Below are positions 1-3,000 of a DNA stretch of 3,460 bases, piece after piece (the first letter of the stretch is position 1; every line of letters starts with the position of its first letter). The position numbers and the translations under genes were made by a program. A model generated the notes under the pieces. That model saw nothing but the letters and a program-made list of their open reading frames with translations, was not told where the DNA came from and made no database searches. Location of the stretch: NCBI RefSeq assembly GCF_003334255.1, contig NZ_QOWU01000121.1; one strand, written 5' to 3'. The stretch comes from Escherichia coli. Its GTDB lineage: Bacteria > Pseudomonadota > Gammaproteobacteria > Enterobacterales > Enterobacteriaceae.

Positions 1-3000
1 ATGAGCGGAAAACCAGCGGCGCGTCAGGGAGATATGACTCAGTATGGCGGTCCCATTGTCCAGGGTTCGGCAGGTGTAAGAATTGGCGCGCCCACCGGCG
101 TGGCGTGCTCGGTGTGTCCGGGCGGGATGACTTCGGGCAACCCGGTAAATCCGCTGCTGGGGGCGAAGGTGCTGCCCGGCGAGACGGACCTTGCGCTGCC
201 CGGCCCGCTGCCGTTCATTCTCTCCCGCACCTACAGCAGCTACCGGACCAGGACACCCGCGCCGGTGGGAGTGTTTGGCCCCGGCTGGAAAGCGCCTTCT
301 GATATCCGCTTACAGCTACGCGATGATGCACTGGTACTCAACGACAACGGCGGGCGGAGCATTCACTTTGAGCCGCTGCTGCCGGGGGAGGCGGTGTACA
401 GCCGCAGCGAGTCAATGTGGCTGGTGCGCGGTGGTAAGGCAGCGCAGCCGGACGGCCACACGCTGGCGCGGCTGTGGGGGGCGCTGCCGCCGGATATCCG
501 GTTAAGCCCGCATCTTTACCTGGCGACCAACAGCGCACAGGGGCCGTGGTGGATACTGGGGTGGTCAGAGCGGGTGCCGGGTGCTGAGGACGTACTGCCA
601 GCGCCGCTGCCGCCGTACCGGGTGCTTACCGGGCTGGCAGACCGTTTCGGGCGGACGCTGACGTACCGGCGTGAGGCCGCAGGCGACCTGGCCGGGGAAA
701 TCACCGGCGTGACGGACGGTGCCGGGCGGGAGTTCCGTCTGGTGCTGACCACGCAGGCGCAGCGTGCGGAAGAGGCCCGCACCTCTTCGCTATCTTCTTC
801 TGACAGTTCCCGCCCTCTCTCAGCCTCAGCGTTCCCCGACACACTGCCCGGTACCGAATACGGCCCCGACAGGGGTATCCGCCTTTCGGCGGTGTGGCTG
901 ATGCACGACCCGGCATACCCGGAGAGCCTGCCCGCTGCGCCACTGGTGCGGTACACGTATACGGAAGCCGGTGAACTGCTGGCGGTATATGACCGCAGCA
1001 ATACGCAGGTGCGCGCTTTCACGTATGACGCGCAGCACCCGGGCCGGATGGTGGCGCACCGTTACGCGGGAAGGCCGGAGATGCGCTACCGCTACGACGA
1101 TACGGGGCGGGTGGTGGAGCAACTGAACCCGGCAGGGTTAAGCTACCGCTATCTTTATGAGCAGGACCGCATCACCGTCACGGACAGCCTGAACCGGCGT
1201 GAGGTGCTGCATACAGAAGGCGGGGCCGGGCTGAAACGGGTGGTGAAAAAAGAACTGGCGGACGGCAGCGTCACGCGCAGCGGGTATGACGCGGCAGGAA
1301 GGCTCACGGCGCAGACGGACGCGGCGGGACGGAGGACAGAGTACGGTCTGAATGTGGTGTCCGGCGATATCACGGACATCACCACACCGGACGGGCGGGA
1401 GACGAAATTTTACTATAACGACGGGAACCAGCTGACGGCGGTGGTGTACCCGGACGGGCTGGAGAGCCGCCGGGAATATGATGAACCGGGCAGGCTGGTA
1501 TCGGAGACATCGCGCAGCGGGGAGACAGTACGCTACCGCTACGATGACGCGCACAGTGAGTTACCGGCGACGACAACGGATGCGACGGGCAGCACCCGGC
1601 AGATGACCTGGAGCCGCTACGGGCAGTTGCTGGCGTTCACCGACTGCTCGGGCTACCAGACCCGTTATGAATACGACCGCTTCGGCCAGATGACGGCGGT
1701 CCACCGCGAGGAAGGCATCAGCCTTTACCGCCGCTATGACAACCGTGGCCGGTTAACCTCGGTGAAAGACGCACAGGGCCGTGAAACGCGGTATGAATAC
1801 AACGCCGCAGGCGACCTGACTGCCGTTATCACCCCGGACGGCAACCGGAGCGAGACACAGTACGATGCGTGGGGAAAGGCGGTCAGCACCACGCAGGGCG
1901 GGCTGACGCGCAGTATGGAGTACGATGCTGCCGGACGTGTCATCAGCCTGACCAACGAGAACGGCAGCCACAGCGTCTTCAGTTACGATGCGCTGGACCG
2001 GCTGGTACAGCAGGGCGGCTTTGACGGGCGGACGCAACGTTATCATTATGACCTGACCGGAAAACTCACACAGAGTGAGGATGAGGGACTTGTCATCCTC
2101 TGGTACTACGATGAATCGGACCGTATCACTCACCGCACGGTGAACGGCGAACCGGCAGAGCAGTGGCAGTATGATGGCCACGGCTGGCTGACAGACATCA
2201 GCCACCTGAGCGAAGGCCACCGTGTTGCCGTCCACTATGGCTATGACGATAAAGGCCGCCTGACCGGCGAATGCCAGACGGTGGAGAACCCGGAGACGGG
2301 GGAACTGCTGTGGCAGCATGAGACGAAACACGCATACAACGAGCAGGGGCTGGCAAACCGCGTCACGCCGGACAGCCTGCCGCCGGTGGAGTGGCTGACG
2401 TATGGCAGCGGTTACCTGGCGGGAATGAAGCTGGGCGGGACGCCGCTGGTCGAGTATACGCGGGACAGGCTGCACCGTGAGACGGTGCGCAGCTTCGGCA
2501 GCATGGCAGGCAGTAATGCCGCATACGAACTGACCAGCACATACACCCCCGCAGGCCAGTTACAGAGCCAGCACCTGAACAGCCTGGTATATGACCGTGA
2601 CTACGGGTGGAGTGACAACGGCGACCTGGTGCGCATCAGCGGCCCGCGACAGACGCGGGAATACGGCTACAGCGCCACGGGCAGGCTGGAGAGTGTGCGC
2701 ACCCTCGCACCAGACCTGGACATCCGCATCCCGTATGCCACGGACCCGGCGGGCAACCGGCTGCCGGACCCGGAGCTGCACCCGGACAGTACACTCACAG
2801 TGTGGCCGGATAACCGCATCGCGGAGGATGCGCACTATGTCTACCGCCACGATGAATACGGCAGGCTGACGGAGAAGACGGACCGCATCCCGGCGGGTGT
2901 GATACGGACGGACGACGAGCGGACCCACCACTACCACTACGACAGCCAGCACCGCCTGGTGTTCTACACGCGGATACAGCATGGCGAGCCACTGGTCGAG

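Follow-up and report, generated by a model that had tools for sequence, protein, structure and literature searches.

A serine-rich, pyrimidine-rich tract in the core of Escherichia coli rhsD is probably the disordered centre of a clade-specific helix-plus-loop expansion

Why does the core of an Rhs toxin gene carry a short C/T-rich run that codes largely for serine, and does the encoded segment do anything in particular? The initial annotation of the stretch of E. coli DNA considered here had singled out positions 781-840 as a compositionally distinct, polypyrimidine and Ser-rich tract. It had taken the encoded residues for a flexible linker between the N-terminal region and the YD-repeat region, and had proposed that such a tract is prone to slippage and often marks indels by which subfamilies differ in cores that are otherwise conserved. 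We examined the tract at the level of the gene, its composition, the predicted fold of the protein and the variation among relatives, and weighed the explanations that these results leave for it.

The window, by which we mean the whole stretch of 3,460 nucleotides that was analysed, lies entirely within the E. coli rhsD core, and frame 1 of the plus strand runs without a stop across all 1153 codons. Its identity is 100% with rhsD of E. coli G1/2 and 99.3% with the K-12 gene. Among 5,426 complete E. coli genomes, 3,901 have related copies, the median number per genome being six. At the identical locus the full gene has 1426 codons and stands in the order ybbP-rhsD-ybbC, the downstream ybbC being an immunity-type gene. 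Two features set the frame for what follows:

Nucleotides 1 to 3460, plus strand: open reading frame of the rhsD core, open in frame 1 to the end of the window and encoding residues 1-1153 of the 1426-residue RhsD.
Nucleotides 136 to 369, plus strand: N-terminal plug domain DUF6531, residues 46-123 (Pfam PF20148, E = 2.8e-18).

At the start of the DUF6531 plug we found a PVNPxLG cleavage-site motif, and the alignment sets P48 of the window protein against the first residue of the Tse5 shell chain 8cp6_B (which starts PVNPMLG; cleavage site K47/P48), so that a cleavage site is predicted here. RHS repeats (PF05593) give eight matches at E <= 0.001 over residues 365-678 and weaker ones over 209-961; Pfam places the repeats from about residue 320 on, with a weak one at 209-243. 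For PAAR there is a partial, weak match to PF05488 at residues 3-20 (E = 0.27). Two C-terminal motifs lie beyond the window in the identical full-length gene (L009): the aspartyl-protease motif DPxGx18DPxG, in the form DPMG...DPMG at residues 1232-1257, and the core-end motif PxxxxDPxGL, in the form PLQQIDPMGL at residue 1249, after which the toxin tip follows. With the repeats, the plug, the cocoon fold described below and the C-terminal motifs all found, the window protein is an Rhs/YD-repeat polymorphic toxin of the T6SS type.

Nucleotides 781-840 are codons 261-280 of frame 1, with the sequence and translation first quoted for them, and their compositional oddity is confirmed and statistically distinct. 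Pyrimidines make up 75% of the tract vs 44% of the window and G 13% vs 35%, while the GC skew is -0.43 in the tract vs about +0.2 in its flanks. Every 60-nucleotide window of highest pyrimidine content starts within 774-793, the maximal pyrimidine segment spans 776-837, and none of 2000 shuffles of the codons of the reading frame attained the observed maximum (mean maximum 0.61 vs 0.77). The encoded peptide has the lowest entropy of all 1153 residues, both at W = 12 (1.78 bits; mean 2.98, sd 0.26) and at W = 20 (2.46 bits; mean 3.35, sd 0.22). Its Ser count, nine of 20 residues, is the highest for the protein, and Ser, Pro, Thr and Ala together account for 70% of it vs 28% elsewhere. The same bias can be read in the codons: NCN codons amount to 65% in the tract vs 23% elsewhere, and the ratio of TCN to other Ser codons is 8:1 in the tract vs 16:51 in the remainder of the gene, where AGC dominates (Fisher p = 2.8e-4). 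The FPD codons at 832-840 belong to a conserved downstream anchor, and the variable part, hereafter the cassette, is thus 781-831 or residues 261-277.

We modelled the 1153 residues with AlphaFold2, using an alignment of 41 sequences (mean pLDDT 85.7, pTM 0.77). The model superposed on Tse5 (8cp6_B) with TM 0.76/0.81. Its best Foldseek matches, with E to 1.9e-80 and TM of about 0.7-0.8, were T6SS Rhs cores, Tse5, RhsA and Tse15 among them. As modelled, the RhsD core has the closed beta-spiral cocoon fold. In Tse5 the N-terminal plug (residues 48-124) is followed at once by the barrel of YD hairpins (PMC10684867); both in the Tse5 structure and in our model, the shell hairpins and strands begin at about residue 125-131, straight after the DUF6531 plug. 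The tract is therefore no linker between the N-terminal region and the YD-repeat region. In the model it corresponds to the end of a helix and a low-confidence loop within the first turn of the RhsD shell, arranged as follows:

Nucleotides 730 to 753, plus strand: beta-strand REFRLVLT, residues 244-251, the final strand of the shell ahead of the expansion (AlphaFold2 DSSP; distant-homologue alignment).
Nucleotides 754 to 795, plus strand: predicted alpha-helix, residues 252-265 (AlphaFold2 DSSP, H252-265).
Nucleotides 781 to 831, plus strand: variable cassette, residues 261-277, Ser-rich and pyrimidine-rich with mostly NCN codons (conservation trough, cassette classes, codon bias).
Nucleotides 805 to 828, plus strand: core of the predicted disordered loop, residues 269-276, SSRPLSAS (AlphaFold2 pLDDT <50).
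Nucleotides 832 to 876, plus strand: conserved downstream anchor, residues 278-292, leading into strand 293-302 (alignments; AlphaFold2 strand E293-302).

The strand at 244-251 is conserved in alignments with distant Rhs proteins as DGAGRxFRLxL. The helix that follows it is, up to R260, a conserved upstream anchor (...QAQRAEEAR), found across all E. coli subfamilies, Salmonella and Citrobacter and absent from distant Rhs proteins; its final five residues already fall in the tract. Residues 269-276 are the sole internal segment of the model with pLDDT <50, the only other such segment being the PAAR-like residues 1-41. The mean pLDDT for residues 271-280 is 49, DSSP assigns nearly all of 266-292 to coil, and in a rough TOP-IDP profile the tract window ranks 71st of 1133. 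With pLDDT as a proxy for disorder, the tract is probably an intrinsically disordered low-complexity loop, and the flexibility that had been supposed for the segment is what the model predicts.

The loop belongs to a larger insertion. The HMMER alignment of the window protein to Tse5 (8cp6), its closest solved relative (E = 2.2e-100), breaks only at query 249-289 / Tse5 178-189. In the E. coli RhsA-H clade, 35-45 residues lie between the strand DGAGRxYRLxL and the motif GWGxDxGxRL, vs about 8-15 in distant Rhs proteins; the distant set consists of collinear Rhs proteins at 34-48% identity, found by scanning 1.84 billion representatives. Judged by these alignments, a helix-plus-loop expansion is specific to the enterobacterial RhsA-H clade.

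Variation within the clade is concentrated in the cassette. We aligned eight E. coli alleles and paralogues, chosen to cover every length class found in a 241-nucleotide search, and found the anchors on both sides of the cassette conserved. Mean pairwise amino acid identity is 0.31-0.42 in the tract vs about 0.8-0.9 in the flanks, the deepest trough of the aligned kilobase, and among RhsD-type alleles the codon differences reach 0.41-0.53 in the tract vs 0.07-0.19 in the flanks. RhsD-type alleles and a third subfamily carry a Ser/Pro-rich cassette of 16-21 residues, 17 in the window allele, which sister RhsD-type alleles spell K(Q/P)(R/H)TASLSSPD(T/S)PRPLS(A/D)(S/P)(A/S); the cassette of RhsB and RhsC, QQAISGGTEPSA, is shorter and G-rich. 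S-type and Q-type cassettes share a nucleotide identity of 0.33-0.46, near background. Tabulation of 75 database fragments gave cassette classes of 12, 16, 17, 19, 20 and 21 residues, and the cassettes of Salmonella and Citrobacter are shorter and different. A Kluyvera homologue has no cassette, and a Lelliottia homologue and two metagenomic ones have neither helix nor loop. Across Enterobacteriaceae the cassette thus ranges from 0 to 21 residues, and its absence from these homologues makes it naturally dispensable. The alignment of Rhs cores over residues 261-280 and the disorder prediction together find a segment that is neither invariant nor predicted to be structured, and the alignments, the cassette classes and the conservation trough bear out the initial annotation in its expectation that subfamilies would differ here by indels, in a core that is otherwise conserved.

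Between the RhsD-type allele L002 and the third-subfamily gene L008, the S/P-rich cassettes are 75% identical at the nucleotide level and the flanks 76%. Since the cassette has the same identity as its flanks, the S/P-rich type is old and has diverged along with its genes. The two cassettes also share the pattern KQR..SLSSP..PR, which, with the 75% identity, is a counterpoint to relaxed constraint and suggests that some constraint on sequence or composition, or no more than common ancestry, persists.

Two features of the window bear on the indels at and beside the cassette:

Nucleotides 778 to 781, plus strand: junction of a derived 9-nucleotide in-frame deletion of TAAACAGCG, with CG/CG microhomology flanks (codon and nucleotide alignments against L002-L004 and L008).
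Nucleotides 834 to 870, plus strand: 7-nucleotide direct repeats CCCCGAC at 834-840 and 864-870 (alignment of L010).

The deleted TAAACAGCG encodes KQR or KQH in sister alleles, and every other subfamily and genus has three residues at this place. In rhsD of strain PF9285 (L010), which is annotated as intact, a 30-nucleotide in-frame tandem duplication bounded by CCCCGAC adjoins the tract and adds ten residues. A larger change distinguishes the L005 allele, present in about 20 of 5,426 genomes and mainly in the O121 and O103 lineages: its flanks are 95% identical to the window and its cassette, QQAVVAGAKRPD, 33%. At both edges this cassette resembles the RhsA/B/C type (64%, vs 77% in the flanks), and by sequence comparison L005 is best described as a patch replacement of the cassette in an RhsD-like gene. 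L011 (H26), with an apparent 900-nucleotide insertion, proved uninformative, being a scrambled Rhs pseudogene. An inverted or frame-shifted origin from the RhsB cassette was likewise discarded, as its frames and reverse complement, compared by eye, had no similarity to the S-type cassette.

We propose, with a probability of roughly 0.8, that the tract is the disordered centre of the clade-specific helix-plus-loop expansion and has little or no sequence-specific function, being under relaxed constraint. The expansion would interrupt the YD-repeat shell of RhsD in its first turn, between strands 244-251 and 293-302. Relaxed constraint on the loop would then allow Ser, Pro, Thr and Ala substitutions, small in-frame indels and the replacement or loss of the whole cassette to be accepted, and Rhs subfamilies would differ at the loop, with the flanking strands conserved, because the loop tolerates substitution, indel and cassette exchange. 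The results above establish the loop's composition, its place in the fold, its low pLDDT, its variability and its natural dispensability in homologues. We infer that it plays no specific role and that its variation is owed to relaxed constraint and not to positive selection.

The polypyrimidine composition is probably a by-product of the same process, in that single changes at the first codon position interconvert Ser (TCN), Pro (CCN), Thr (ACN) and Ala (GCN). The allele differences that we observed are TCT/GCT, TCT/CCT, TCC/CCC and AGT/ACA, that is, Ser-Ala, Ser-Pro and Ser-Thr exchanges. Because the codons of these four amino acids share C at position 2 and are a single step apart, a drifting loop stays C/T-rich, and a separate nucleotide-level function is needless to account for the bias. 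We nevertheless considered whether the bias could mark a structured RNA, a gene on the antisense strand or, at 769-788, a hairpin or intrinsic terminator, and attach almost no probability to this. A terminator-like pattern, GAAGAGG-CCCGCA-CCTCTTC with a T-rich tail, does occur once vs 0.2 expected, but the hairpin at 769-788 folds no better than shuffles (z = -1.17; 121-nucleotide context, -0.28) and is disrupted in sister alleles, and Rfam returned no match relevant to the tract and one sub-threshold chance match elsewhere in the window. Mechanical antisense reading frames overlap the tract at 516-1022 and 701-943, yet no promoter-like sites were found at 600-1050; and since some relatives carry another cassette or none, an RNA structure or antisense frame over the tract cannot be conserved. 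It is also highly improbable that the tract is a slippage-prone, contingency-type simple-sequence locus that changes length frequently, as the initial annotation had suspected. The short TCT TCT TCT run in its low-complexity context and the two in-frame indels, the 9-nucleotide deletion and the 30-nucleotide duplication between CCCCGAC repeats, might be taken that way, but these indels are not multiples of a repeat unit inside the Ser run. TRF found no tandem repeat in the tract at a minimum score of 30, TCT occurring only three times in a row, and within the window we found no direct or inverted repeat family involving 781-840. When a 120-nucleotide probe was compared with records of at least 95% identity, using a 60-row sample and identity bands, all 60 sampled rows of the 2,981 E. 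coli records were 120 nucleotides long; no slippage-type length polymorphism was seen among them, and the only other length class in the search was the fixed +9 allele.

Two further explanations concern how cassettes are exchanged and what they might be for. Short-patch recombination (gene conversion) could swap the cassette among Rhs paralogues and alleles, so that the tract would be a mosaic patch; this is compatible with relaxed constraint and would add to it. We regard it as possible, though doubtful. L005 is what such a swap would look like, with its 95% identical flanks, its 33% identical cassette and its RhsA/B/C-like cassette edges, although we found no donor gene that carries this cassette in a native, diverged context. 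Synonymous and non-synonymous differences among RhsD-type alleles both concentrate in the tract, albeit on small counts (17 codons), whereas between subfamilies the divergence of the S-type cassette matches that of its flanks, which argues for vertical inheritance there. It is improbable, in our judgement, that the loop is a functional specificity element, whether a paralogue-specific contact for a cognate VgrG, a chaperone or an adaptor, or a hinge near the plug, flexible or protease-sensitive, that affects shell opening and toxin release. Such a role would suit a loop that lies in the first shell turn, near the plug (46-123) in sequence, that comes in discrete cassette classes largely tracking subfamily, and whose composition and short motif are kept between two subfamilies. 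It sits poorly with natural homologues that have no cassette or lack the whole helix and loop, with a ten-residue duplication tolerated in an intact allele and with the unrelated cassette in the otherwise RhsD-type L005; moreover, solved Rhs effectors work without the expansion, and no such role is mentioned in the literature searched. A bolder version holds that the discrete classes (S/P-rich of 16-21 residues, G-rich of 12 residues, none) constitute a paralogue-specific address or a hinge near the plug. If this were true, the cassette would set which VgrG, chaperone or adaptor loads the Rhs protein, or the ease with which the shell opens, and rare swaps such as L005 would re-assign specificity. 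Partner recognition or a plug-side hinge is unlikely because the cassette is naturally lost, duplicated and replaced, and we give this version very little credence.

A tolerant loop under relaxed constraint is thus our preferred reading, and the literature that we searched is silent on the tract. In the description of Rhs genes by Jackson et al. 2009 (PMC2935791), the region falls in the 'clade-specific N-terminal domain' and the tract itself is undescribed; it is unmentioned in the Tse5 paper (PMC10684867) and in the T6SS Rhs-container preprint, and a literature search for a serine-rich tract in Rhs, T6SS or YD-repeat proteins found nothing. The tract is probably an ordinary, tolerant, disordered loop of a well-known protein. 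What has been gained is that a compositional oddity of a textbook gene, the E. coli K-12-type rhsD, is now placed in the solved Rhs cocoon fold, which has little import beyond annotation. In practice, the cassette is a handy short sequence by which to type Rhs subfamilies and alleles and a plausible permissive site for tag insertion in Rhs shells. It also calls for caution in alignment and recombination analyses, because cassettes are non-homologous between subfamilies.

Comparison with known systems brings out what is shared and what is particular to this loop. Like Tse5, the T6SS Rhs effector of Pseudomonas aeruginosa, RhsD has a short, putatively PAAR-like N-terminus, a DUF6531 plug at PVNP(L/M)LG and a YD-repeat cocoon; unlike RhsD, which has about 41 residues at 249-289, Tse5 has about 10 at the corresponding place (178-189), with no helix and no Ser-rich loop. 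E. coli RhsA, RhsB and RhsC (the rhsABCF subfamily) share with RhsD the clade-specific helix and the downstream anchor FPDTLPGYTEYG, with flanks at about 77% nucleotide identity, but their G-rich, 12-residue cassette is at about 33% nucleotide identity effectively unrelated. The third E. coli subfamily is that of L008 (WP_001350059.1); PMC2935791 quotes a scheme of three subfamilies, by which we take it to be rhsGH. Its Ser/Pro-rich cassette, KQRASSLSSPASPRSVSSSQV, is homologous to that of RhsD, the 75% nucleotide identity being to the KQR allele of the RhsD type. It differs from the window allele in having 21 residues vs 17, in keeping the KQR triplet and in one additional residue before FPD. 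The RhsD loop finally resembles the generic low-complexity, Ser/Pro/Thr-rich disordered linkers and loops of bacterial surface and secreted proteins in its low entropy, its Ser, Pro, Thr and Ala content, its low structural confidence and its variation in length and sequence; unlike those linkers, it is inserted within a continuous beta-spiral shell and not between independently folding domains.

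The sequence of the window and the AlphaFold2 (AF2) model of its 1153 residues have further features besides the Ser tract itself (window 781-840, residues 261-280):

Window 571-600 (residues 191-200): dip in AF2 confidence, 10-residue block mean 56, Pro-rich (VLPAPLPPY).
Window 769-788: terminator-like by score, two 7-nt arms (GAAGAGG/CCTCTTC) that pair perfectly as an inverted repeat around a loop of 6 nt.
Window 2491-2520 (residues 831-840): dip in AF2 confidence, 10-residue block mean 64.
Window 2881-2910 (residues 961-970): dip in AF2 confidence, 10-residue block mean 62.
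Window 3220-3429 (residues 1074-1143): five helices predicted by AF2 (residues 1074-1080, 1085-1096, 1104-1118, 1124-1132, and 1137-1143).

The inverted repeat at 769-788 straddles the junction of the 9-nt deletion that separates the window allele from its sister KQR alleles, in which the counterpart has a 15-nt loop and one mismatch. The stability of the repeat was no greater than that of shuffled sequences, and it may simply be the place where purine-rich Glu codons abut pyrimidine-rich Ser codons.

Several Rhs copies are unusual. The rhsD gene of strain PF9285 (NZ_CP038791.1), annotated as intact, carries an in-frame tandem duplication of 30 nt (10 residues twice) directly 3′ of the tract; its limits are a 7-nt direct repeat, CCCCGAC, and it corresponds to window 834-870. 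A rare RhsD-like allele, L005, has its variable cassette replaced by QQAVVAGAKRPD and its downstream anchor altered to IPDSLPESTEYG. Among 5,426 complete genomes, only some 20 have this allele (O121:H19 and O103 STEC genomes). One fragment, P0032, contains an apparent internal duplication of its AEEARQQ segment (QQAEEARQQAVVAGAKRPD). In P0009, a single NCBI sequence of 81% identity, a 12-residue part over the tract matches what manual translation of the window's Ser tract gives in another frame, with the normal frame regained ahead of LSASA. Either a frameshift has been compensated here, or the sequencing or the annotation is at fault. Lastly, the locus at NZ_CP130447.1 2481224-2482523 is a scrambled Rhs pseudogene with an annotated internal stop; it strings together, in the wrong order, stretches that correspond to window 1935-2135, 875-1312, and 459-1005.

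None of the three AF2 dips (residues 191-200, 831-840, and 961-970) contained a segment below 50, and residues 1-41 had pLDDT below 50. The predicted five-helix region lies just upstream of the protease motif. Since the phmmer alignment of RhsD with Tse5, the Pseudomonas aeruginosa T6SS effector that is its closest solved relative (PDB 8cp6), stops at residue 1073, the modeled helices may represent a second clade-specific expansion, of either the shell or the C-terminal plug region.

Tse5 also bears on the N terminus, where its autocleavage site was mapped by experiment to K47|P48 (PVNPMLGSKLLPEE). RhsD N47|P48 (window 139-144), with SGN before the putative cut, aligns with this site, and the alignment therefore suggests that RhsD is likewise cleaved behind a PAAR-like N terminus of roughly 47 residues.
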